NCBI RefSeq assembly: GCF_050013435.1 | Contig: NZ_JBEKFG010000010.1 | Coordinates: 8,316-72,315 of the forward strand | Origin: Candidatus Binatus sp. | GTDB lineage: Bacteria; Desulfobacterota; Binatia; Binatales; Binataceae | Length of the DNA: 64,000 nt | Direction: 5' to 3' | Shown: positions 34,956 to 46,404 of the stretch, piece by piece | Position numbering within the stretch: position 1 is the first letter of the stretch | How the letters are laid out: each line of letters opens with the position of its first letter | Program-made: the position numbers and the translations under genes | Notes under the pieces: model-generated | What the model was told of the DNA's origin: nothing | Database searches by the model: none | What the model saw: only the letters and a program-made list of their open reading frames with translations

Positions 34956-35960
34956 ATGATTCGCGGCCGGACCAAATGCCCGCTCGATCCGTTCCTGGTC
35001 GCGAATCTGGTCTGCCCGCGCGATCACATCGACCTCGACGCGGCCGGCGACGTGCTCGCTTGCGCCCAGCAGCATCGCTATCGCGTGGTTGGCGATATCC
35101 CGGTGATGTTGCTGGACGACGTGCCGCAGACGCTCGGCGTCGCATCCGATTCGCTGCGCGCCGTCAGCGACGATGCTGAACCGCCAACCGCATCAGCTGC
35201 GCCGCCGCCGGCTATCGGGGTTGACCCTTACGTGCAGAGCGCGATCGCCGCGACGGGAGGATATTTGTACGCGGGGCTAATCGGATCGCTCACCGAGTAT
35301 CCAATCCCCGAGATGCGCCTGCCGCGCGCCACCGGACCCGGCCAGTACCTCCTGGATATCGGATCGAACTGGGGCCGCTGGTGTATCGCGGCGTCGCGAC
35401 TCGGTTACGAACCGGTTGGAATTGATCCCGGTCTCGCGTCGCTTCAGGCAGCTTCACGAGTCGCCAGGCAACTCGGCGCAAAGGTGCGCTTCGTCGTAGG
35501 CGACGCGCGCTATCTGCCGTTTCACGATTCAGTTTTCAGCGTCGCGTTTTCGTACAGCGTATTGCAGCACTTCGCAAAGCCGGACGCCGTGCGCGCATTC
35601 GGCGAGGCCGGCCGCGTGCTGATGCCGGGCGGGCGCGCGTTGATCCAGATGGCGAATGTTTACGGCTTGCGCTGCCTCTACCATCAGGCGCGACGCCGCT
35701 TTCGCGAACCCGCCGGGTTCCAGGTTCGCTATTGGACACCGCGCGAACTGCGCCTGGCCGCATCGCGGGCGATCGGGCCGGCTACGATTTCAGTCGATGG
35801 CTACTTCAGCCTCAATCCGCAGCATTCCGACCTGCGCATCCTGCCTGCGCGATATCGCCTGATCGTGCGTGCGTCCGATGCGTTGCGCGCCGCCAGCGAG
35901 CGTGTGCCGGCGATGCTCCAGTTTGCCGACAGTATCTACCTGAGCGCTTTGAGGCCGTGA
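34956..35960 (+). CDS. Class I SAM-dependent methyltransferase with a Trm112-like N-terminal module
   Basis: N-terminus LVCPRDHIDLD...GDIPVML, then LLDIGSNWGRWCIAASRLGYEPVGIDP...VFSVAFSYSVLQH...LMPGGRALIQ. Confidence 0.8.
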   Translation: MIRGRTKCPLDPFLVANLVCPRDHIDLDAAGDVLACAQQHRYRVVGDIPVMLLDDVPQTLGVASDSLRAVSDDAEPPTASAAPPPAIGVDPYVQSAIAATGGYLYAGLIGSLTEYPIPEMRLPRATGPGQYLLDIGSNWGRWCIAASRLGYEPVGIDPGLASLQAASRVARQLGAKVRFVVGDARYLPFHDSVFSVAFSYSVLQHFAKPDAVRAFGEAGRVLMPGGRALIQMANVYGLRCLYHQARRRFREPAGFQVRYWTPRELRLAASRAIGPATISVDGYFSLNPQHSDLRILPARYRLIVRASDALRAASERVPAMLQFADSIYLSALRP

Positions 35961-36230: not shown

Positions 36231-36325
36231 ATGGGAGAGGAATTTGGAATTTGGACCCGCACCCGACGCTCGACGACTCGCGTCGGCCTCGCCCTGTCAG
36301 GGCGGTGCCACGGGCACGCGGCAAA

Positions 36326-36613
36326 GGAAAAGATCCGGGATTCTTCGCTGCGCAGACTCCGCTCTGAATGACAGAAAAGGAAGGAACCGGGATTCTTCGC
36401 TTCGCAGACTCCGCTCTAGAATGACAGAAAAGGAAGGATCCGGAATTCTTCGCTACGCAGACTCCGCTCTGAATGACAGAAAAGGAAAGATCCGGGATTC
36501 TTCGCTTCGCAGACTCCGCTCTGAATGACAGAAAAGGAAGGAACCGGGATTCTTCCCCTTCGGCAGCGCTCAGGGCTTCGGCTCAATCACAGCGACTTTC
36601 GCTCTAGAATGAC
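36326..36613. repeat. Tandem array of a 52-53 bp unit (about 4 full, 1 partial and 1 expanded copy)
   Basis: gaatgac recurs at 36366, 36419, 36471, 36523 and 36607. The unit is gaatgacagaaaaggaagga.ccgggattcttcgct.cgcagactccgctct. Each unit is the right half of the gtcat...gaatgac palindrome. Confidence 0.85.
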
Positions 36614-36643
36614 ACGGGCTGCCGTTCGCTTTTTTCCGTTATC

Positions 36644-37999
36644 GTGAGCGCAATGAAAACTTTGCACCTTCCGTTCTGCTTCTACCCTGATCCGGTTGGT
36701 GGCACCGAGATATACGTCGAATCGCTGGCTACGTGCCTGCGTAAGCTGAACGTTGAGGCGGAAATCGCGGTTCCGGCGCCTGATCAGCGTTCATATCGAT
36801 ACAATGACCTGACGGTGCATCGATTCGCGACCGGTACTCCGAGCTTGGCCGATTTATATGGCCTTGGGGATCCGGTTGCGGCACAGTCGTTTGCAAAGGT
36901 CCTTGAGTCTTGCGCACCCGATGTCGTACACCTGCATTCCTGGACCGCCGGGGTGTCAATCCGGGTATTGCGCATCGCCAAAGCCGCGGGTATCCCGGTC
37001 GTGTTCACCTATCATACGCCCACTGTCAGTTGCGTCCGCGGAACCCTGTTGCGCTGGGGAATCGAGCAATGCGATGGCGACCTGGAGTCATCGCCATGCG
37101 CCGCTTGCATGCTTCACGGCAAAGGACTTAGCCGCCCACTCAGCATTGCATTAGCCAGTCTGCCGGTCGCGATAGGCGAACGGATCGGCAAGCTCGGGCT
37201 GGAAGGAAGACTGATGACGGCGGTGCGCGCGTCGGAACTTATACATCTGCGCAAAGACGCGCTAACGGGTCTGTTCGACGAAGCTGACGCATTAGTCGCG
37301 GTGTGCAACTGGGTTTACGATTTGATGCTGCGAAATGGCGTGGACAAGTCGAAGCTGACAATCTCGCATCATGCATTGCGCAACTCGCCGCAACTGAACT
37401 ATCCAGGCGAACCGCGAAGGGCTGGTGACGATATCCGCATTGCCTTCCTGGGCAGGCTGGCGCGCGAGAAGGGTATCGATATTCTGCTCGCGGCGATGCG
37501 GCGAATCAGCAGCCCCCGGCTCAAGCTCGATATATTCGGCATCGCAAATGACAGCGAAGCGCAGTCCGTCAAGCAAACAGTGGTGGACGCAGCCGATCAG
37601 CGCATCCGGCTGCTCCCGCCCTTTGCCAACGTGAATGCGATATCCGAACTTCGCGGATACGATTGTCTCGCCGTCCCCTCGCAATGGTTGGAGACCGGTC
37701 CGCTGGTAGTGCTGGAGGCATTCGCCGCGGGTATTCCGGTCATTGGTTCCAACCTGGGTGGAATCGCGGAACTTGTGGAGCACGAGAAAAACGGGTTGCT
37801 GGTCGAGCCTGCTTCAATCGAGGCCTGGGTCGCGGCGTTGAATCGATTGCTAACGGAACCCGGGCTGCTGCCCCGGCTTCGACTTGGGATCCCGAAGAGT
37901 CGAACGATGGAGCAAGTCGCCGGCGAGATGTTAACCGTGTACCGCAAGCTCGCGCCCACGGTTGCGCCGTTGGCCAGCCTGGAGAATCGCCCGCAATGA
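36644..37999 (+). CDS. GT4-family glycosyltransferase (GT-B)
   Basis: MKTLHLPFCFYPDPVGGTEIYVESL..., C-terminal AVPSQWLETGPLVVLEAFAAGIPVIGSNLGGIAELVEHEKNGLL. GTG at 36644, or ATG at 36653. It ends ...ENRPQ with an ATGA overlap into the next gene. Confidence 0.85.
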   Translation: MSAMKTLHLPFCFYPDPVGGTEIYVESLATCLRKLNVEAEIAVPAPDQRSYRYNDLTVHRFATGTPSLADLYGLGDPVAAQSFAKVLESCAPDVVHLHSWTAGVSIRVLRIAKAAGIPVVFTYHTPTVSCVRGTLLRWGIEQCDGDLESSPCAACMLHGKGLSRPLSIALASLPVAIGERIGKLGLEGRLMTAVRASELIHLRKDALTGLFDEADALVAVCNWVYDLMLRNGVDKSKLTISHHALRNSPQLNYPGEPRRAGDDIRIAFLGRLAREKGIDILLAAMRRISSPRLKLDIFGIANDSEAQSVKQTVVDAADQRIRLLPPFANVNAISELRGYDCLAVPSQWLETGPLVVLEAFAAGIPVIGSNLGGIAELVEHEKNGLLVEPASIEAWVAALNRLLTEPGLLPRLRLGIPKSRTMEQVAGEMLTVYRKLAPTVAPLASLENRPQ

Positions 38000-39027
38000 A
38001 AGTGTCGGTCGTGATTCCCACCTATAACGACGAAGGCACGATTGCGGCCACGGTGGAGAGCGCGCTGGCGCAGCGGTTCGACGGAGCGTTCGAGGTGATC
38101 GTCGTCAATGACGGATCGACCGACGGCACGCGCGGGATACTGGCAAAATTCGGCGATCGGATCCGGGTGATCGATCAAAAGAACTCGGGCGTGTCGGCGG
38201 CGCGCAACGCCGGTATCAGAGCGGCGTCGGGCGAATATATCGCGCTGCTGGACGGCGACGATGCCTTTACCGAGGACAAGCTTCAGAAGACGGTGCCGGT
38301 GCTCGATGAAAATCCGGCGTGCGTGGCGGTGGCTTCGAACGTGATCGGGGTGGACGGCGCGGGCAGGGTCGTTTCGTACCCGGTTACGCCGGAATTCCGG
38401 CATTCACCGACGCTCGACGAGATGCTCGATCGGCTGTGGGCGTACCTGCCCAGCGCGTGCGTCATCCGGCGCGAGACGCTGGTGGCGATCGGCGGCTTTT
38501 CGGAAGAATTCAAACCGGAACATTACGCCTGCGAGGACACTTTCATTATGCTGCTGGTGCGCGAGCGCGGTGAAATTCGGTACGTGCCCGAGACGCTGGT
38601 CCGGTACCGTTACCGGGAATTTCGCGAACATCTCGCCAACCGGCTGCGCAGCCGGCGCCTCGAGATCGATTCAGCGCAGGCATTTCGCGAGTTCGAGCGC
38701 CGCTACGAGGCAAACCTCATCCTTGCGCGATTGACGCTGGAGCATTTCGGCGCTCGCGGCCGTAAACTTGCAGCCTTGGCGATCGATAGCGTCGCACGCG
38801 AACTGATCGGAGTCGGGTTGATGGCGATGTACGAGGGCGATCGCACGCTTGCCCGGCGATGCTACCGCGCGTCGATTCGCTATAATCCGCGGATGCTGAA
38901 GACCTATTTCCGGCTGGGGTGGGCGATGCTGCCCGCCAAAGTTGCGGAAATGCTGTCGCCGATGCTTCCGCATGGGTTGCGGCGCAGCCTGTCAGGCCCG
39001 CCGGTTTTCGAGGAACGCCCGCAATGA
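37996..39027 (+). CDS. GT2-family glycosyltransferase, cassette a, with conserved C-terminal tail module
   Basis: MKVSVVIPTYNDEGTI..., DGSTDGT, DxD LDGDD, tail ...GLMAMYEGDRTLARRCYRASIRYNPRMLKTYFRLGWAML...LRRSLSGPPVFEERPQ. ATGA overlaps at both ends. Confidence 0.9.
   Translation: MKVSVVIPTYNDEGTIAATVESALAQRFDGAFEVIVVNDGSTDGTRGILAKFGDRIRVIDQKNSGVSAARNAGIRAASGEYIALLDGDDAFTEDKLQKTVPVLDENPACVAVASNVIGVDGAGRVVSYPVTPEFRHSPTLDEMLDRLWAYLPSACVIRRETLVAIGGFSEEFKPEHYACEDTFIMLLVRERGEIRYVPETLVRYRYREFREHLANRLRSRRLEIDSAQAFREFERRYEANLILARLTLEHFGARGRKLAALAIDSVARELIGVGLMAMYEGDRTLARRCYRASIRYNPRMLKTYFRLGWAMLPAKVAEMLSPMLPHGLRRSLSGPPVFEERPQ
38959..39027 (+). repeat. Junction element J1
   Basis: ccgatgcttccgcatgggttgcggcgcagcctgtcaggcccgccggttttcgaggaacgcccgcaATGA. 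Confidence 0.85.
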
Positions 39028-40055
39028 AAGTGTCGGTCGTGATTCCCACCTATAACGACGAAGGCACGATTGCGGCCACGGTGCATAGCGCGCTGGCGCA
39101 GAAGTTCGAGGGCGGGTTCGAGGTGATCGTCGTCAACGACGGCTCGACCGACGGCACGCGCGGGATACTGGCAAAATTCGGCGATCGGATCCGGATGATC
39201 GATCAAGAGAACCTGGGGGTGTCGGCGGCGCGCAACGCCGGTATCAGAGCGGCGTCGGGCGAATACATCGCGCCCTTGGACGGCGACGATACGTGGACGG
39301 AGGACAAGCTTCAGAAGACGGTGCCGGTGCTCGACAAAAATCCGGCGTGCGTGGCGGTGTATTCGAACGTGATCGTGCTGGACGGCGCGGGCAGCGAACT
39401 TTGGTGCTGTGTTCCACCCGAATTCCAGCATTCGCCGACGCTCGACGAGATGCTCGATCGGGTGTGGGTGTATCTGCCCAGCGCGACCGTCATCCGGCGG
39501 GATACGCTGCTGGCGATCGGCGGATACTCGGAGGAATTCGCGGCGGGACATTACGGCTTCGAGGACACTTTCATTATGCTGCTGGTGCGCGAGCGCGGCG
39601 GAATCATGTTCCTGCCTGAGACGCTGGCGCGGCGCCCGTTCAGGGAATTCGCCACAAAGTACGCCAACCGGCTGCGCAGCCGGCGCTTCGAGATCGATTC
39701 GGCGGAAGCATTCAGCGAGTTCGAGCGCCGATTCGAGGGGAGCACTGTCTTTGCACGACTGGTGCGCGAGCACTTCGGCGCTCGCGGCCGCAAAATTGCA
39801 AAGTCGGCGGTCCATGGCGCCGCGAGCGAGTTGGTCGGAGTCGGGTTGATGGCGATGCACGACGGCAATCGCGGGTTCGCGGGGCGATGCTACCGCGCAT
39901 CGATTCGCTACAGACCGCTGATGTTGAAGACCTATTGCCGGCTGGGATGGGCCATGCTTCCCGGCAAAGTTGCGCAGCGCCTCTCCCCGATGCTTTCGCC
40001 GGGGCTGCGGCGCAGCCTGACAGGTCCTCCGGTTTTGGAAGAACGTCCGCAATGA
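39024..40055 (+). CDS. GT2-family glycosyltransferase, cassette b
   Basis: Same head (MKVSVVIPTYNDEGTIAATV) and tail (...RRSLTGPPVLEERPQ) as cassette a. Identity by eye is ~75-80%. Confidence 0.9.
   Translation: MKVSVVIPTYNDEGTIAATVHSALAQKFEGGFEVIVVNDGSTDGTRGILAKFGDRIRMIDQENLGVSAARNAGIRAASGEYIAPLDGDDTWTEDKLQKTVPVLDKNPACVAVYSNVIVLDGAGSELWCCVPPEFQHSPTLDEMLDRVWVYLPSATVIRRDTLLAIGGYSEEFAAGHYGFEDTFIMLLVRERGGIMFLPETLARRPFREFATKYANRLRSRRFEIDSAEAFSEFERRFEGSTVFARLVREHFGARGRKIAKSAVHGAASELVGVGLMAMHDGNRGFAGRCYRASIRYRPLMLKTYCRLGWAMLPGKVAQRLSPMLSPGLRRSLTGPPVLEERPQ
39987..40055 (+). repeat. Junction element J2
   Basis: ccgatgctttcgccggggctgcggcgcagcctgacaggtcctccggttttggaagaacgtccgcaATGA. Confidence 0.85.
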
Positions 40056-41071
40056 AAGTGTCGGTCGTAATTCCCACCTATAACAACGAAGGCACAATTG
40101 CGGCCGCAGTGGAGAGCGCGCTGGCGCAGAAGTTCGAGGGCGGGTTCGAGGTGATCGTCGTCAACGACGGATCGACCGACGGCACCGCCGAGGTCCTGCG
40201 CGGCTTCGGCGATCGCATCAAGGTGGTCGCGCAGCCCAATCGCGGGTGCGCAGCCGCAAGAAACGCCGCGGTGCGAAACTCAGCAGGAAAATACCTGGCG
40301 TTCCTCGATGCCGACGACGAATGGCTGCCGGAAAAGCTCGCGAAGACCGTATCGACGCTCGAGGGCGACTCAAATTGCGGGCTGGCCTATTCGGACGCCG
40401 CGCTGGTGGATTCGCGCGGCGTGCCCAGGAATCATTCGTATATTGCCGCGGGGTATTCCCGCGAGCCTTCATTGGACGACCTGCTGCGTGAGTGGTGGTG
40501 GATCCTGCCGAGCACAGCAGTGATGCGCCACTCGATCTACGATCGCTGTGGCGGTTTTGCCGAAGAATTCGGGCCGCGCGACTACGGCGGCTCCGACGTC
40601 CTGATGTGGATACGGGCGCGAGACCGCGCGCCCTTCCACTTCATTCGCGAGCAGCTCGTCCGCTATCAGCTAGCCGATCCCGTGGCCCATCTCGCGAAGC
40701 GGATTCCAAACTTCCCTGGAGGACCGAACGACGGCGGACCAGACATCCGCGCTCGGTCGCTGGTCCATGGAGAGGAGATTCTTATTCGCCTGGTCCGCCG
40801 CGAGTATGGCCGCAGAGCGCGAGGCCTCATTAGCAATCACCGCACAAAACAGGCCGAGATGCTGACCGTCGCGGGGATGCTGGCGATCAATCAGGGCAAC
40901 GCGCGCTTTGCGCGCGACTGCTACCTCGAAGCGCTGAAGCGGCGACCGCTCCAGTTGAAGCTGCCGTTTCGACTGGCGTGGACCTTGGTCCCGTCCTCGC
41001 TCGCCCGTCCGATCGCAGCGGTGCTGCCGCGGAGGATTGCGCGCGCTCTGTGCGGTCCTCCAGCGATTTGA
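40052..41071 (+). CDS. GT2-family glycosyltransferase, cassette c (divergent paralogue)
   Basis: It has the same 5' head (MKVSVVIPTYNNEGTIAAAVESALAQKFEGGFEVIVVNDGSTDGT). The rest is much more diverged, and the tail is recognisable but decayed (...RLAWTLVPSSLARPIAAVLPRRIARALCGPPAI). Confidence 0.85.
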   Translation: MKVSVVIPTYNNEGTIAAAVESALAQKFEGGFEVIVVNDGSTDGTAEVLRGFGDRIKVVAQPNRGCAAARNAAVRNSAGKYLAFLDADDEWLPEKLAKTVSTLEGDSNCGLAYSDAALVDSRGVPRNHSYIAAGYSREPSLDDLLREWWWILPSTAVMRHSIYDRCGGFAEEFGPRDYGGSDVLMWIRARDRAPFHFIREQLVRYQLADPVAHLAKRIPNFPGGPNDGGPDIRARSLVHGEEILIRLVRREYGRRARGLISNHRTKQAEMLTVAGMLAINQGNARFARDCYLEALKRRPLQLKLPFRLAWTLVPSSLARPIAAVLPRRIARALCGPPAI

Positions 41072-41135
41072 GCGCGGTGTTATCCGCCACCGCCAGGTTG
41101 GTGGCACTTAGCAGCCTACTTGTGGATCAAACACG

Positions 41136-42401
41136 TTGAATCATTCAAACCGTTCAAACCCTGGTGGCTACCAAGCGGCAAATATGAGCAGGCAAATGGC
41201 TGGAGGCACGCTTGGGCCGGACGTTCCTAAACCCTTGCCTAAAGCCTTGCCTAAAATCGTGCAGAAGGCTGCGGAATACAATCTAACGGAACACTGCAAC
41301 CTGAGATGCGCAGGTTGCAGTCATAGCTCGGAGCTTTTGCCGAAGAAATTTGCCGAGGTGAAGGAATTTCAACGCGACTTAGCCGTGCTTTCGCAGGTGC
41401 TGCATCTTAATGAGTTGAGACTCTTAGGGGGCGAGCCCTTGTTGCACCCCGATTTGCTGGAGTATCTGCGATGTGCGCGCGCGAGCGGGCTTGCAGAAGA
41501 GATAACCTTGAGCACCAACGGCCTGCTCCTGCATCGCTGCGATCCGGCGACATTTGAGCTGATTGATCGGTTGCGGGTCAGCCTTTACCCCGGTGTCAGG
41601 CTCCGAGTTGAAGAGCGTGAGCTCGAATCCTTATCGAGAAGATATAACTTTAAGCTGGAGCTTAAAAGAGTTGACAGCTTCAGAGTTACCACGCTCAACA
41701 GCCGCCATCGGGATGCCAGCTTGGTGCGGCGAATCTTCAGGCAGTGCGCCTTGGCGCATGACTGGAGCTGCCACACAGTTCATCAAGGTTACTACTTCAA
41801 ATGTTCGCCGGCTCCTTTTCTGCAAGGCCGAATGGCGCTCAGAGGTGAGTCGGTCCTGAACCGCGATTTAGACGGGGTGAGGATTCATGACAACCCGCGA
41901 CTCAGAGAAGAGTTGGAAGCCTACTTGCGCGACGAGGAACCGCTCGAGGCGTGTTACTATTGTCTCGGCTCGTCCGGACGCAGGTTTCCTCATCGACAGT
42001 TGAATAGCAAAAAATTGCGCGAAGAGATTGACCGGAGCGGGAAACTGCGCGACCCACCGGCAGACCCGCAGCGGCACGTCAGAGGATACCATGCGTGGGC
42101 GCGGCTGATGCACGAGCGATTCGGCGCTCGCGCCCGCAGCCTTGCGGACTATGCAATCGATTCGATAGCGCACGAGCAAGTGGCCATGGGAATGATGGCG
42201 ATGCATGAAGGCGATCGCAGGTTCGCGCGGCGATGTTACCTGAGCTCGCTCCGCAACCGGCCGTTGAAGCTGAAGACCTACGTTAGGCTGGCGTGGGCGA
42301 CTGTGCCGGCGAGCGTCACGCAAATGCTGTCACCGATGCTCGCGCCGGGGCTGCGGCGCAGCCTGTCAGGTCCGCCGTTTTTGGAAGAACGTCCGCAATG
42401 A
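41136..42401 (+). CDS. Radical SAM enzyme carrying the GT2-cassette C-terminal tail module (chimeric architecture)
   Basis: CX3CX2C motif HCNLRCAGC (nt 41295-41318), GGEPLLHP, a later Cys pair CYYC. The last ~105 aa, FGARARSLADYAIDS...GMMAMHEGDRRFARRCYLSSLRNRPLKLKTYVRLAWATVP...LRRSLSGPPFLEERPQ, are homologous to the GT2 tails. TTG start at 41136; an ATG alternative lies ~50 nt downstream. Confidence 0.75.
   Translation: MNHSNRSNPGGYQAANMSRQMAGGTLGPDVPKPLPKALPKIVQKAAEYNLTEHCNLRCAGCSHSSELLPKKFAEVKEFQRDLAVLSQVLHLNELRLLGGEPLLHPDLLEYLRCARASGLAEEITLSTNGLLLHRCDPATFELIDRLRVSLYPGVRLRVEERELESLSRRYNFKLELKRVDSFRVTTLNSRHRDASLVRRIFRQCALAHDWSCHTVHQGYYFKCSPAPFLQGRMALRGESVLNRDLDGVRIHDNPRLREELEAYLRDEEPLEACYYCLGSSGRRFPHRQLNSKKLREEIDRSGKLRDPPADPQRHVRGYHAWARLMHERFGARARSLADYAIDSIAHEQVAMGMMAMHEGDRRFARRCYLSSLRNRPLKLKTYVRLAWATVPASVTQMLSPMLAPGLRRSLSGPPFLEERPQ
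42333..42401 (+). repeat. Junction element J4
   Basis: ccgatgctcgcgccggggctgcggcgcagcctgtcaggtccgccgtttttggaagaacgtccgcaATGA. Confidence 0.85.
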
Positions 42402-43435
42402 AAGTGTCGGTCGTGATTCCCACCTATAACAACGAAGGCACAATTGCGGCCACGGTGGAGAGCGCGCTGGCGCAGCGGTTCGAGGCCAAGTTCGAGGTGA
42501 TCGTCGTCAACGATGGATCGACCGACAGCACGCGCGGGATACTGGCAAAATTCGGCGATCGGATCCGCGTGATCGATCAAAAGAACTCGGGCGTGTCGGC
42601 GGCGCGCAACGCCGGCATCAGAGCGGCGTCGGGCGAATATATCGCGCTGCTGGACGGCGACGATACGTGGAATGAAGACAAGCTTCAGAAGACGGCGCCG
42701 GTGCTCGATGAAAATCCGGCGTGCGCGGCGGTATTCTCGGATGTGATGCAGGTGGACGGCGCGGGCAAGGAATATGGAACCTGGGTTTCACCCGAATTCC
42801 AGCATTCGCCGACGCTCGACGAGATGCTTGAGTGGCCGTGGCCGAACCTGCCCAGCGCGACCGTCATACGGCGGGAGACGATCATGGCGATCGGCGGTTT
42901 CTCGGAGGAATTCGGCCGTCGCGGATACGGCGGCGAAGACACGTTCGCGGCCCTGCTGGTGCGGGAGCGGGGCGAAATTCACTTCGTGCCGGATAAACTG
43001 GTGCGCTACCGGCTTTCGGACTTTAACGGGAATTTGGCCAAGCGGATCCGCTCGCGCGACAGCAACCAAAGCGGGATCGATCAGTTCGAAGAGCCGGAGC
43101 GGCTGAGCGACGGGCTTTTGATTTTTGCACGACTGGTGCGCGAGCATTTCGGCGCTCGCGGCCGCAAACTTGCAGAATGGGCGATCGATAAGCTCGCGAA
43201 CGAGCTGATCGCAGTCGGGATGACGGCGATGCACGAGGGCGATCGCACGCTTGCGCGGCGATGCTATCGCGCGTCGCTTCGCTACAGACCGCTGATGTTG
43301 AAGACTTATTTCCGGCTCGGGTGGGCCATGCTTCCCGCCAAAGTTGCGGGAATGCTGTCCCCGATGCTTCCGCCGCGGCTGCGGCGCAGCCTGTCAGGTC
43401 CGCCGTTCCATGGCTTGCCGGATCGCCCGCAATGA
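42398..43435 (+). CDS. GT2-family glycosyltransferase, cassette d
   Basis: Head MKVSVVIPTYNNEGTIAATVESALAQRF, LDGDD, tail ...LRRSLSGPPFHGLPDRPQ. Confidence 0.9.
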   Translation: MKVSVVIPTYNNEGTIAATVESALAQRFEAKFEVIVVNDGSTDSTRGILAKFGDRIRVIDQKNSGVSAARNAGIRAASGEYIALLDGDDTWNEDKLQKTAPVLDENPACAAVFSDVMQVDGAGKEYGTWVSPEFQHSPTLDEMLEWPWPNLPSATVIRRETIMAIGGFSEEFGRRGYGGEDTFAALLVRERGEIHFVPDKLVRYRLSDFNGNLAKRIRSRDSNQSGIDQFEEPERLSDGLLIFARLVREHFGARGRKLAEWAIDKLANELIAVGMTAMHEGDRTLARRCYRASLRYRPLMLKTYFRLGWAMLPAKVAGMLSPMLPPRLRRSLSGPPFHGLPDRPQ

Positions 43436-43466
43436 ATCGGAAATCATGAACATCCTGGAACGAGCC
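43361..43466 (+). repeat. Junction element J5 (long form)
   Basis: ccgatgcttccgccgcggctgcggcgcagcctgtcaggtccgccgttccatggcttgccggatcgcccgcaATGAatcggaaatcATGAacatcctggaacgagcc. Confidence 0.85.
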
Positions 43467-43549
43467 AGCGCTGCGCCTGAGATCAGAAACGGCGCATGGC
43501 TAACTCGACGCAGATGGGTCGATAAGTCGATATCAAGAGGAACGCGCTG

Positions 43550-44422
43550 ATGCCGCTTGCAGGGCGCATGCTTCGAGCAGTGCGATTGCACCGACCGGCG
43601 CTCTGGTGTTACTGGAGGTGCCGCCATGCAGGCGAGTATCTGCAGAGCCTGGGCGTAGCACGCGGGCTGATCGCTATGTTTGTACTGCGCACCCGTCCGG
43701 GAGCGTCCGGTCGCACGCTGGGACTACTGATTCCGGGTTCTCGAAGACCATTTTTCCTGCGAGGCGGAACCGCCGATGTCAGGGTGTTCCGGCAGATTTT
43801 TATGGAACGGCAATACGATGTGGAGGTCTCGCCCGAGCCGCGCCTCATAATCGATGCAGGCGCCCATATTGGGTGCGCGAGCGTGTTCTTTGCTTGCAGG
43901 TACCCGCAGGCCACCATCCTGGCAATAGAACCAGAGGCGGCCAACTTCGAGATGCTGCGCAGGAATGCCGCCCCTTACCGCAACATCGTGCCGATCCGCG
44001 CGGCCATATGGGGACGGCCTGACGTTCTTGCAATCGCAAATCCAAGCGATGAATCGTGGCGATTTCAGACTCGGCAAGCAACGGCAGCCGAGGTCGATAC
44101 CGTGGTCGGGATCACGATTGAGGAGCTGCTAAGATGGACGGGCGCACCCTTGATCGACATACTCAAGATCGACATCGAAGGGGCTGAAAAACAGCTGTTC
44201 TCCGCCCCGTGTGATCGTTGGCTCGGCCGGGTATGTGCGATGTTCGTCGAACTGCACGACCGTTTTGAGCCTGATTGCGGGGAGGCCCTTCGGCGGGCCA
44301 CGGCGCCCTACGGTTTCGTCGAATCGCAGCGGGGCGAAGACGTTATCCTGCGGCGCGACTGTACGATGGAGATCAACCGCCATCTCGAAGGGAGAGGCAA
44401 TGTTTGGGACGCCCCCATTTGA
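43550..44422 (+). CDS. FkbM-family methyltransferase
   Basis: IIDAGAHIGCASVFFACRYPQATILAIEPEAANFEMLRRN and IDILKIDIEGAEKQLF. Confidence 0.8.
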   Translation: MPLAGRMLRAVRLHRPALWCYWRCRHAGEYLQSLGVARGLIAMFVLRTRPGASGRTLGLLIPGSRRPFFLRGGTADVRVFRQIFMERQYDVEVSPEPRLIIDAGAHIGCASVFFACRYPQATILAIEPEAANFEMLRRNAAPYRNIVPIRAAIWGRPDVLAIANPSDESWRFQTRQATAAEVDTVVGITIEELLRWTGAPLIDILKIDIEGAEKQLFSAPCDRWLGRVCAMFVELHDRFEPDCGEALRRATAPYGFVESQRGEDVILRRDCTMEINRHLEGRGNVWDAPI

Positions 44423-44610
44423 TCCTCACCGACCATCGCCTCGCATACTACTATCGCCAGAACCTCATGATGTTTGCCTCCGACGAAGGCGCGGTAGCGC
44501 ATCCGCCTTGGCGGCGTACTCCGGGGCGCTTGAAACCCTCGGCCTCGAATGGGGCCACGCCCCGGTCCACGAGCTGGCTCTAAGTGACCGCGCGATTCTT
44601 TTGCGCGCGC

Positions 44611-44710
44611 CCGATGCTTTCGCCGCGGCTGCGGCGCAGCCTGTCAGGTTCACCGTTTTTGGAAGAACGTCCGCAATGAATCGGCAATCATGAACATCCT
44701 GGAACGAGCC
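44611..44710 (+). repeat. Junction element J6 (long form, lies outside any credible CDS)
   Basis: ccgatgctttcgccgcggctgcggcgcagcctgtcaggttcaccgtttttggaagaacgtccgcaATGAatcggcaatcATGAacatcctggaacgagcc. It begins ~190 nt after the FkbM stop at 44422. Confidence 0.85.
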
Positions 44711-44731
44711 CGTCTTCTACCCGGTTAACTC

Positions 44732-46387
44732 ATGACCAACGCCGTCGCCGCGTCTCACACGCCGGGTCTTCCCGGACGCGCCAATACCCAAAGCCGCGAG
44801 CCGCGTGGCGAGCTGATTCGATGGTTTTCGAAACCGGCGACTGCGCTTGCGCTCATCGTCGTGTCCGGCGCGGCGCTGCGAATCCTAAAAATCACCGACT
44901 ACAGCCTCTGGGGTGACGAGGGCTTCAGCGCCGCTATCGTGATGCAGCCGTGGCGCCCATTTTGGCTGTCGATACTTTACGAGCCATGGACCGCGTTTTA
45001 CTTCGTGCTCTTGAAACCCTGGACGCTCTGTTTTGGGACCGGCGAGGTGGCGCTGCGCTCGTTGTCGGTAGTGTTGGGCCTCGTGGCTATCGTGGCGATC
45101 TATTATCTCGGTGAGCGGCTCTTCAGCCGCCGGGCAGGATTGATCGCGGCCGCGATGACCGCCGTCAGCCCGGTGCAAATCTGGTATTCCCAGGAGGTGC
45201 GCGGCTATTCGCTCTATGTACTTCTGAGCGCCCTGTGCTGGCTCGCGTTTCTGGCGGCTCTTCACAATTCCCGGCCGCGAAATCTGAGCATATGGTCCGT
45301 GCTGATGGTGCTCATGGGTTATTGCCATTTTATTGGATTGGGCATTATCCCCGCGCAATGGGTCTGCATCGCGATTCGGCGTCCCGATTTATCCTCCGTC
45401 AAGCGCCTCGCTCTGGCGACCGCGGCCGCCGCAGTCGCTTTGGCGCTAATTCCGATTTTCATGGTGACGCTGAACTCCGGACAGGCAGGCTGGATTGCTC
45501 CGCTTTCATGGGCGGAGATCGCCGATGTTTTCGTGACAGTCTCAGGTGGGCTTCACGGCAATGCCGGTGCGATTTTCTGCCTGACTTATGTCCTGCTTCT
45601 GATCTGGGCCTTTCTCGGGTCATTTCAAAAGGGCAACGATCGGTCAGGATGGGAGAGTTGCGCATTTGCGTCAGCCGGATTTCTGGTTCCGATCATGGCA
45701 ACGATTGCGGGCGGGTTTTTCGTGCCGATGCTGATGGGGCGGTATCTCCTGCTTTGCTTTCCGCCTTTCGTAGTACTCGCCGCGCAAGGCCTTTTGACTG
45801 TTCGCCCGCGGAAGGCAGCGCTCATCGTGGTCGCCGCACTTGTCGCCTTGACCGCGTGGGAACTGCGCGACTCCTACAATTTAGAATCACGGGATGACTG
45901 GCGCAGCACGGCTCAATACGTGATGAGGCACGGCCAACCCGGCGACGCTGCGATTTTCGTCACTCCGGAGTGCCGCTACGCGTTCCAATATTACGCCGCA
46001 CGAGAACCAAACACTGCTGCCTTCCCCGTTATACTGGGCGAGAACCGCGACCTCGTGGACGGGATTCGAATCGTGACGAATCGGTTCCCGTCCTATACCA
46101 GCGGCGTGCTGGGGAAGGTCGGTTCACTCCCGAAGAGTTACCGTCGCATTTGGCTCATGAAGCCGGGCAGTATTGATCTCGATCCGCGCGACCCGAACAA
46201 ACGGGAATCCGTGCAGTTGGCTGCCGCGCTGGCGCACGAATACCGGACCCATCCTCCAGTCATCTTCAACGGAGTATCGGTGTGGCTCTACGACACGCCC
46301 GATGCTTCCGCCGCTGCTGCGGCGCAGCCTGTCAGGTCCGCCGTTCCACGGCTTGCCGCAGCGCCCACAATGAATCGGAAATCATGA
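44732..46387 (+). CDS. Polytopic membrane glycosyltransferase, GT-C fold (GT39/ArnT/PMT_2-like)
   Basis: About 12 predicted TM segments, a first-loop acidic motif YSLWGDEGFSA, and ...GEVALRSLSVVLGLVAIVAIYYLGERLFSRRAGLIAAAMTAVSPVQIWYSQEVRGYSLY. The C-terminus reads through junction J7 in a different frame (DASAAAAAQPVRSAVPRLAAAPTMNRKS). Confidence 0.7.
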   Translation: MTNAVAASHTPGLPGRANTQSREPRGELIRWFSKPATALALIVVSGAALRILKITDYSLWGDEGFSAAIVMQPWRPFWLSILYEPWTAFYFVLLKPWTLCFGTGEVALRSLSVVLGLVAIVAIYYLGERLFSRRAGLIAAAMTAVSPVQIWYSQEVRGYSLYVLLSALCWLAFLAALHNSRPRNLSIWSVLMVLMGYCHFIGLGIIPAQWVCIAIRRPDLSSVKRLALATAAAAVALALIPIFMVTLNSGQAGWIAPLSWAEIADVFVTVSGGLHGNAGAIFCLTYVLLLIWAFLGSFQKGNDRSGWESCAFASAGFLVPIMATIAGGFFVPMLMGRYLLLCFPPFVVLAAQGLLTVRPRKAALIVVAALVALTAWELRDSYNLESRDDWRSTAQYVMRHGQPGDAAIFVTPECRYAFQYYAAREPNTAAFPVILGENRDLVDGIRIVTNRFPSYTSGVLGKVGSLPKSYRRIWLMKPGSIDLDPRDPNKRESVQLAAALAHEYRTHPPVIFNGVSVWLYDTPDASAAAAAQPVRSAVPRLAAAPTMNRKS

Positions 46388-46404
46388 ACATCCTGGAACG
46401 AGCC
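46299..46404 (+). repeat. Junction element J7 (long form)
   Basis: ccgatgcttccgccgctgctgcggcgcagcctgtcaggtccgccgttccacggcttgccgcagcgcccacaATGAatcggaaatcATGAacatcctggaacgagcc. Confidence 0.85.

Follow-up and report, generated by a model that had tools for sequence, protein, structure and literature searches.

A radical SAM enzyme with a glycosyltransferase-derived C-terminal domain in an exopolysaccharide locus of Candidatus Binatus

Gene, domains and locus

A stretch of 64,000 nucleotides from Candidatus Binatus sp. (contig NZ_JBEKFG010000010.1, positions 8,316 to 72,315 of the forward strand; referred to below as the window) was analysed around an open reading frame (ORF) present at 41136-42401 on the forward strand. 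Comparison of the predicted product with related proteins indicated a chimera, in which a radical S-adenosylmethionine (SAM) core of the SpeY family is followed by a tail from the glycosyltransferase family 2 (GT2). The protein is probably a functional chimeric tailoring enzyme of an exopolysaccharide pathway, composed of a SpeY/HygY-type epimerase core and a GT2-derived tail, with a short junction element at the 3' end, J, providing homology for recombination. The parts of the gene were located as follows.

41184-42401, forward strand: radical SAM gene with GT2-type tail, 405 amino acids from ATG 41184 (maximal ORF from TTG 41136)
41295-41318, forward strand: CX3CX2C motif (C38, C42, C45; C-N-L-R-C-A-G-C) of the radical SAM [4Fe-4S] cluster, invariant in family alignment A3
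41427-41450, forward strand: GGEPLLHP, the SAM-binding GGE motif
41745-41963, forward strand: twitch-type auxiliary-cluster region, where C188, C207, C257 and C260 align to four SpeY cysteines
42027-42062, forward strand: fusion joint or linker, residues ~282-293, with a predicted local distance difference test score (pLDDT) of 49-59, overlapping the step in guanine plus cytosine (GC) content
42063-42398, forward strand: GT2-derived C-terminal tail, basic (net +10), helical, with one tetratricopeptide repeat (TPR)-like unit

Translation is likely to start at ATG 41184 rather than at TTG 41136, since the homologous proteins P0001-3 and P0005 and the orthologue in the related locus L090 begin at the equivalent codon (P and L numbers denote proteins and loci used for comparison). 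Close homologues open with MSKQ at the codon matching ATG 41184, and the DNA around that ATG is conserved. Residues of the radical SAM protein are numbered from this codon. A 24-nt in-frame duplication (PKPLPKAL) at 41226-41249, in the N-terminal region, is missing in L001 and L002; the closest relative (P0001/L087) has a segment of the same length.

An earlier sequence-only reading of the window had proposed that two unrelated folds are joined in this protein, and the comparisons bore this out, the tail coming from the GT2 family. In the Pfam scan the only matches were Radical_SAM (PF04055, residues 48-147 of the TTG ORF; score 40.5 bits, gathering threshold 29.5) and Fer4_12. No match to the GT-A catalytic domain PF00535 was returned by the same scan, so the protein is not a member of the GT2 family, though it has one domain in common with it. 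The tail proposed in that reading was recovered as nucleotides 42099-42398 of a 300-nt direct-repeat family (D2) shared with the 3' ends of the GT2 genes. The switch had been placed near 42090; the shared tail stands, and GT2 homology starts slightly upstream, at nt ~42030-42063. BLASTP alignments to GT2 proteins begin at residue 283-294, reaching ~283 against the L046 GT2 protein, and residues 294-405 are 63% identical to the tail of the GT2 paralogue that follows the gene (GT2#4; E 3e-43). A tail hidden Markov model (HMM) matched 42102-42398 with E 2.7e-51, and its six-frame scan of the window returned five full tails, four in GT2 genes and one in the radical SAM gene.

A domain scan of the ORFs placed the radical SAM gene within a long co-directional polysaccharide locus. 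Upstream lie a Wza-like exporter (Poly_export and SLBB), an SLT transglycosylase and Wzi, then two GT4 genes and a methyltransferase, and then a GT4 gene at 36644-37999. Three GT2 paralogues follow in series directly before the radical SAM gene. Downstream are GT2#4 (42398-43435), an FkbM methyltransferase (43550-44422) and a PMT_2 membrane glycosyltransferase (44732-46387), and farther on a second FkbM methyltransferase, more GT4-like genes, a carbamoyltransferase and an NAD epimerase. A repeat analysis revealed a 1028-bp periodicity of the GT2 genes.

37996-39027, forward strand: GT2 paralogue #1, full tail, J at 38958-39028
39024-40055, forward strand: GT2 paralogue #2, full tail, J at 39986-40056
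40052-41071, forward strand: GT2 paralogue #3, diverged tail lacking the J element
41072-41183, forward strand: leader of low GC that fills the gap from the GT2#3 stop to the start of the radical SAM gene; its sequence is conserved in L001 and L090
42398-43435, forward strand: GT2 paralogue #4, full tail, variant J' at 43360-43430

The 112-nt leader moves together with the radical SAM core, and no promoter or terminator could be found in a scan of 40800-42600. Farther upstream, between the methyltransferase (34956-35960) and the GT4 gene starting at 36644, about five tandem copies of a 52-53-nt unit (AAAGGAA.GATCCGGGATTCTTCGCT.CGCAGACTCCGCTCTGAATGACAG) occupy 36323-36574; the gap holding them is far shorter in L001 and L002.

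The radical SAM core and its predicted chemistry

By sequence comparison, the core is related over its full length to SpeY, a twitch-type radical SAM sugar dehydrogenase. The motifs named in the sequence-only reading (CX3CX2C, GGEPLLHP and a CYYC at 41952-41963) were all found in place. Pfam assigned the N-terminal part to PF04055 and the subfamily could be named SpeY-type through a match in the PDB, where one clear relative of the core was present (7WZV/7WZX/7X0B, titled "Twitch Radical SAM Dehydrogenase SpeY"). SpeY (7WZV) matched residues 29-274 over chain positions 35-278 with E 8.7e-49 as a single sequence, and the family profile matched 7WZV with E 2.4e-63, at a core identity of ~32-37%. 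The same structure ranked first when the AlphaFold model was searched with Foldseek (TM score 0.78, normalised to the target; core pLDDT >90). NCBIfam held no curated family for the core and gave only partial N-terminal matches far below the cut-offs. In the protein database, 863 proteins matched the whole protein at E <= 1e-5; most were 280-316 amino acids long, covered the first ~65% of the query and lacked the tail.

The cysteines of the core are strongly conserved. C188, C196, C207, C257 and C260 were invariant or at least 90% conserved in family alignments A3/A4, C196 across ~95 members. C196 (41769-41771, in WSCHTV) aligns to a serine of SpeY (WNSHTV), numbered 203 in the deposited chain. 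This would presumably be Ser183 if a 20-residue tag precedes the native sequence, and C196 may then occupy the position of HygY Cys183 and SpeY Ser183. A HygY study from the Liu laboratory reportedly found that HygY epimerises the sugar at C2' with Cys183 as hydrogen donor, its C183A variant being a dehydrogenase. SpeY, with Ser183, is said in a study from the same laboratory to be a dehydrogenase whose S183C variant epimerises.

On the strength of the conserved C196, the enzyme is predicted to be a radical sugar epimerase. In the proposed mechanism, the CX3CX2C cluster would cleave SAM to give a 5'-deoxyadenosyl radical, which would abstract a hydrogen atom from a sugar carbinol carbon, while C188, C207, C257 and C260 would hold the auxiliary [4Fe-4S] cluster. 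From the opposite face C196 most likely gives a hydrogen to the substrate radical, with net epimerisation as the outcome; this step is favoured because a cysteine is kept where the dehydrogenase SpeY has a serine. By analogy with SpeY and HygY, the enzyme would act on an already glycosidically bound sugar, and its substrate may be a residue of a lipid-linked repeat unit or of the polymer. The suggestion of the sequence-only reading that an unusual radical sugar modification takes place in this locus is plausible, the closest solved relative being the sugar-oxidising SpeY.

It appears rather unlikely that the core performs some other chemistry, be it dehydrogenation to a keto-sugar as in SpeY, dehydration, decarboxylation or C-methylation. 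Such chemistry would agree with the sole solved relative being a dehydrogenase, with an identity to SpeY of only ~32-37%, and with BlsE (a decarboxylase) and BtrN (a dehydrogenase) among the weaker structural neighbours. However, the cysteine at the SpeY-serine position is kept throughout the family, and the Pfam scan found no cobalamin-binding or methyltransferase domain in the radical SAM protein.

Relatives of the core were often found near glycan genes, and a GT2 gene lay no more than 8 kb away in 35 of 84 genomic loci with core-family members. In other proteins the core was seen fused to a class I methyltransferase (P0020), to a polysaccharide deacetylase (P0099) and to PF10698 (P0029, P0050 and P0070); in glycan contexts it evidently enters domain fusions readily. 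Several relatives, with or without the tail, adjoin a sulfotransferase gene (L003 1202-2056, L005 8402-9253, L006 1317-2168 and L046 6644-7495), and epimerisation could be coupled to sulfation in those loci. No such sulfotransferase was found in the window.

Origin and retention of the C-terminal tail

A profile built from twelve tails was searched against 1.84 billion representative proteins and gave 290 hits at E <= 1e-3. An earlier tail-only search of a word-indexed protein database, which returned six short fragments only, was replaced by this exhaustive profile search. Hits with a single matching stretch were almost all GT2 proteins of ~315-355 amino acids with the tail at residues ~245-340, the shorter ones being fragments, while hits with several stretches were long TPR proteins matching profile positions ~19-52, in agreement with weak Pfam TPR matches of the tail. 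These hits identify the tail as the native C-terminal domain of one GT2 subfamily, with one TPR-like helix pair. Three called ORFs of 72-99 amino acids (P0123, P0124 and P0126) consist of the tail alone and may be frameshifted GT2 genes or free-standing tail genes.

The tail carries 18-19 lysines and arginines, with a net charge of +9 to +10 per 110 residues, and no segment of it reaches transmembrane-level hydrophobicity. A short form was present behind a Methyltransf_24 domain in two representatives (P0231 and P0261); with the GT2 and radical SAM carriers, the tail is thus found on three unrelated catalytic folds. Two tail lengths with different joints were distinguished, a long one from near ARLMHERFGAR and a short one from near ELEAAG. 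In a neighbour-joining (NJ) tree that has no support values, the radical SAM tails all nest within the local GT2 tail subclade.

The AlphaFold model of the full radical SAM protein had a mean pLDDT of 84 and a predicted template modelling score (pTM) of 0.70, the tail being modelled at pLDDT 53-88 as one long helix followed by four short helices. The model of GT2#1 reached a mean pLDDT of 91 and a pTM of 0.89, with its tail at 89-98. Fewer tail-bearing rows in the alignment may explain part of this difference in tail confidence. A Foldseek search with the GT2#1 model returned GT-A cores only, and no solved GT2 structure in it matched the tail.

The lower GC of the core described in the sequence-only reading is real, and a compositional break is present. 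The core (41184-42098) has 55.3% GC and 63% GC at third codon positions (GC3), compared with 64% and 75% in the tail (42099-42398) and 62-64% and 75-79% in the GT2 genes. GC falls from 0.68 to 0.51 at ~41.1 kb, the leader included, and rises again at ~42.04 kb, so that a low-GC island spans 41.08-42.04 kb with an upward step at 42039-42128. The core falls within the lowest 4.6% of 915-nt windows in the 64 kb, yet it is not the lowest, and the GT4, MT1 and PMT_2 genes of the locus also have a GC3 of 66-69%. The step between core and tail was seen in every tail-bearing orthologue examined (L087, L001, L046 and L003), and in other loci checked, tail-less and unrelated ones included, the core lay 2-7 points below local GC. 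The break is real but old, and alone it gives no date for a capture in this genome.

The tail was present in only 13 of the 120 best homologues, and none of the 13 fell below 58% overall identity. In a core-only NJ tree these carriers group in one clade (core identity at least 69%) whose sister lineages are tail-less. The only tail-bearing match kept among 185,579 species, each represented by one genome, was L046, a Candidatus Binatus metagenome-assembled genome. Tail-bearing radical SAM genes were present on six independent contigs at 73-98% core identity. The array of one GT4, three GT2 and one radical SAM gene is common to the window, L087, L001 and L002; L090 has the gene in a different array, L046 behind a single GT2 and a sulfotransferase, and L003 on an 8-kb contig with no GT2 gene. 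The same architecture therefore occurs outside tandem arrays (L046 and L003), though within a Binatia-like clade only. From these comparisons, the fusion appears to be inherited within that one clade; the tail would have been gained by gene fusion in its ancestor and then retained under selection.

The ratio of nonsynonymous to synonymous substitution rates (dN/dS) of the radical SAM tail was 0.29-0.50 between the window and close orthologues and 0.43-0.49 at a synonymous divergence of 0.6-0.8. Values of 0.24-0.39 were obtained for GT2 tails between orthologues and of 0.14-0.37 for the radical SAM core, except 0.65 against L001. These ratios point to purifying selection on the tail, though with less constraint than on the core. 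When compared in 40-nt bins, the mid-portion of the radical SAM tail shares 80% identity with its counterparts in the radical SAM genes of L046 and L003, against 48-62% with the GT2 tails of the window. Over the last ~55 nt, identity is 91-100% to the GT2#1 and GT2#2 copies and 38-79% to the L046 radical SAM tail.

Several points weigh against the view of the protein as a functional chimeric epimerase. The hydrogen-donor role of C196 is carried over from HygY and SpeY, and the epimerase role in polysaccharide loci is a prediction for all such family members. Tail-less relatives occur at 81-84% core identity inside the tail-bearing clade, so the enzyme works without the tail. In L002 (sample ERZ25039509) a G run shortly before the tail, at the position equivalent to window ~42039, holds one G more and puts the tail out of frame, which could be a real loss or an assembly error. 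The dN/dS of the radical SAM tail at depth is above that of GT2 tails, and the tail was modelled on the radical SAM protein with only moderate confidence. The NJ trees of core and tail, built separately, lack support values, and one fusion or several may be alike compatible with them.

Some of these points would also agree with the tail being a functionless scar, left when the core dropped into a GT2 cassette, in which the 3' coding sequence is kept only for the ATGA overlap and ribosome-binding region of the next gene and is refreshed by gene conversion. The terminal ~70 nt do behave in this way elsewhere in the locus, as an orphan intergenic copy and as a copy read out of frame by PMT_2; the 3' end of the radical SAM tail closely matches the local GT2 copies, and besides the tail-less relatives and the L002 frameshift, the dN/dS of the tail is above that of the core. 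We nevertheless consider a scar unlikely. The ~110-residue tail is in frame in six contigs over 73-98% core identity, L003 and L046, which have no downstream GT2, included; its dN/dS is 0.3-0.5 and not ~1; its middle has not been homogenised with the local GT2 genes; and genuine scars in the locus have shrunk to 22 codons. Where the sequence-only reading had left a choice between recombination scar and transferable module, the module is favoured for the ~100-amino-acid tail, and a scar is favoured only for the two ~70-nt fragments, 44610-44680 and 46298-46368.

The origin favoured in the sequence-only reading, a recent horizontal capture confined to this array, would have placed a foreign low-GC radical SAM gene in one GT2 cassette of this genome, and although the low-GC island, the recombinogenic array and the L046 radical SAM gene start (G)TGAAAGTTTCT (VKVS), which is like the GT2 start and overlaps the preceding stop, speak for it, it is very improbable and appears already largely refuted by the orthologues, as the same fusion is present in L087, L001, L090, L046 and L003, two of them outside GT2 tandem arrays, the GC step and the lowered core GC recur as described above, synonymous divergence between tail-bearing orthologues reaches 0.6-1.0, and the truncated GT2 sequence in L090 that had looked like a fossil arose by internal deletion within GT2#3, not by capture.

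Junction element J, gene exchange and the place of the enzyme

The repeat analysis revealed six copies of J, a 71-nt element, in the window; its 28-nt core occurred 6 times and 0 times in shuffled sequences. The copy ending the radical SAM gene is 92% identical to that at 39986-40056, as expected from the shared junction element and ATGA that the sequence-only reading had noted.

42332-42402, forward strand: junction element J, the last 22 tail codons and the ATGA overlap with GT2#4
44610-44680, forward strand: orphan J, intergenic after the FkbM methyltransferase, the last 22 tail codons only, with an in-frame stop before it
46298-46368, forward strand: J' copy, read in the +1 frame by the PMT_2 gene (44732-46387)
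42403-44680, forward strand: segment of GT2#4, FkbM methyltransferase and orphan J, absent from L001 and bounded by direct J copies

Two remnants covering only the last 22-23 positions of the tail HMM were detected, one intergenic (44611-44676) and one within PMT_2 (46296-46370). The C-terminus of PMT_2 ends by reading J in the +1 frame (...DASAAAAAQPVRSAVPRLAAAPTMNRKS, then the stop), and is therefore encoded by a recombination scar.

Comparison with related loci indicated how J is used. L001 (91-92% identical) is colinear with 36638-42402 and then resumes at 44611, with 70 nt of J as the overlap, which identifies 42403-44680 as an indel between direct J copies. L002 skips from 42402 to 46299, J to J, and lacks GT2#4, the FkbM gene and PMT_2, while L087 (95%) has the same arrangement as the window. 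The arrays of L090 and L092 are 92-95% identical and otherwise colinear; the radical SAM unit is present in L090 and not in L092, and the boundaries of the difference fall in cassette-shared sequence. The J block, judged from these alignments, marks natural indel breakpoints and leaves scars.

The first 360 nt of the GT2 paralogues are 85-100% identical and mid-gene sequence is 33-86% identical. Together with the identity pattern of the tails, this shows a block that spans gene boundaries and is kept similar from one boundary to another. It consists of the last ~70 nt of the tail and the first ~300 nt of the following GT2 gene, and the comparison of strains shows it to serve as homology for gene gain and loss. 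The J variant mostly goes with the following gene, EERPQ preceding three GT2 starts and HGLPxRPQ preceding an MNRKS/MNILERA start; the orphan at 44610-44680 is an exception, being of the EERPQ type yet preceding an MNILERA-type start. The sequence ATGAATCGG.AATCATGAACATCCTGGAACGAGCC, which holds the mini-ORF MNRKS and the start MNILERA, occurs in three copies (43421-43466, 44665-44710 and 46359-46404), of which the third alone continues into a full FkbM methyltransferase and the other two are truncated N-terminal remnants.

Two further candidates were set aside. A 15-nt palindrome in the junction, GGCTGCGGCGCAGCC, was considered as a structural site in DNA or RNA; the copies in L046 and L003 do not preserve it although they still encode RLRR(S/G)L, so that it can be put down to the coding sequence. 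The second was a shortened GT2 5' fragment in L090, taken at first for a fossil of capture; DNA alignment demonstrated an internal deletion instead. The fragment (L090 618-760) is a GT2#3 orthologue that has lost ~860 nt between CCGCsGAGG microhomologies, leaving a pseudogene upstream of the radical SAM gene. At L046 8591-8605 the radical SAM start GTGAAAGTTTCT (VKVS), overlapping the preceding GT2 stop, resembles the GT2 start ATGAAAGTGTCG (MKVS), and by this start the L046 lineage has cassette-like sequence at both ends.

The enzyme and its locus share features with several known systems. The closest are SpeY of the spectinomycin pathway and its homologue HygY of the hygromycin B pathway. 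SpeY is homologous to the window core over its full length and has the same CX3CX2C motif and four auxiliary-cluster cysteines. SpeY has a serine where the window enzyme has a cysteine, SpeY and HygY belong to aminoglycoside clusters whereas the window enzyme lies in a Wza/Wzi exopolysaccharide locus, and the ~110-residue GT2-derived domain is lacking in the solved SpeY chain and in most family members. Proteins of the GT2 subfamily (~315-355 amino acids, GT-A fold) have a tail homologous over ~100 residues with the same basic, TPR-like character, but they pair it with a GT-A catalytic domain instead of the radical SAM barrel of the window protein; the models also differ, GT2#1 having a tail predicted with confidence and the radical SAM protein a poorly ordered linker.

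O-antigen, capsule and exopolysaccharide loci show mosaic evolution by homologous recombination at conserved sequences, and the strain indels of the window likewise end in repeated conserved sequence. Unlike the repeats of such loci in general, the repeat of the window lies inside the locus at nearly every gene boundary and itself codes for a shared domain, through which a gene that enters the array can acquire a protein module. Integron gene cassettes resemble the window array in being single-gene units that each end in a similar short element; however, attC is an imperfect inverted repeat, whereas J is a direct repeat within coding sequence whose palindrome does not persist in distant copies. 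The scanned ORFs, a subset of those in the window, included none with an integrase domain. Exchange at J is explained by ordinary homologous recombination. Neither this mechanism nor the enzyme family is of a new kind; the novelty lies in the domain combination, in the evidence for a GT2 C-terminal domain portable between enzyme classes, and in the placement of a SpeY/HygY-type enzyme in exopolysaccharide synthesis.

A localisation or docking module is suggested by the basic TPR-like character of the tail, by its presence in three enzyme classes, by the selection that maintains it and by the flexible linker that would join it to the core. Such a tail would most likely bring the epimerase to the same membrane or protein partner as the GT2 enzymes. 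A bolder proposal, which we offer only as a speculation, is that the tail acts as a portable docking domain through which GT2 enzymes, the radical SAM epimerase and, in the genomes of other organisms, methyltransferases come together in one membrane-associated complex for polysaccharide assembly, and that the tail sequence doubles as the homology for cassette exchange, with the consequence that recombined-in enzymes would gain the docking domain automatically. If true, new polysaccharide structures, among them ones made by radical epimerisation on a lipid-linked unit or polymer, could arise by a plug-and-play route built into the locus.

To our knowledge, SpeY/HygY-type radical SAM sugar epimerases and dehydrogenases have been characterised only in aminoglycoside antibiotic pathways. 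The core family has hundreds of uncharacterised members, many adjoining glycosyltransferases, and the present locus offers a specific setting in which to test for radical epimerisation during exopolysaccharide synthesis. That the GT2 C-terminal domain behaves as a module able to move among GT-A, radical SAM and class I methyltransferase folds would point to a partner or location that these enzymes share. In the poorly studied Binatia lineage, the strain comparisons show that repeated coding sequence at gene boundaries drives the gain and loss of tailoring genes.

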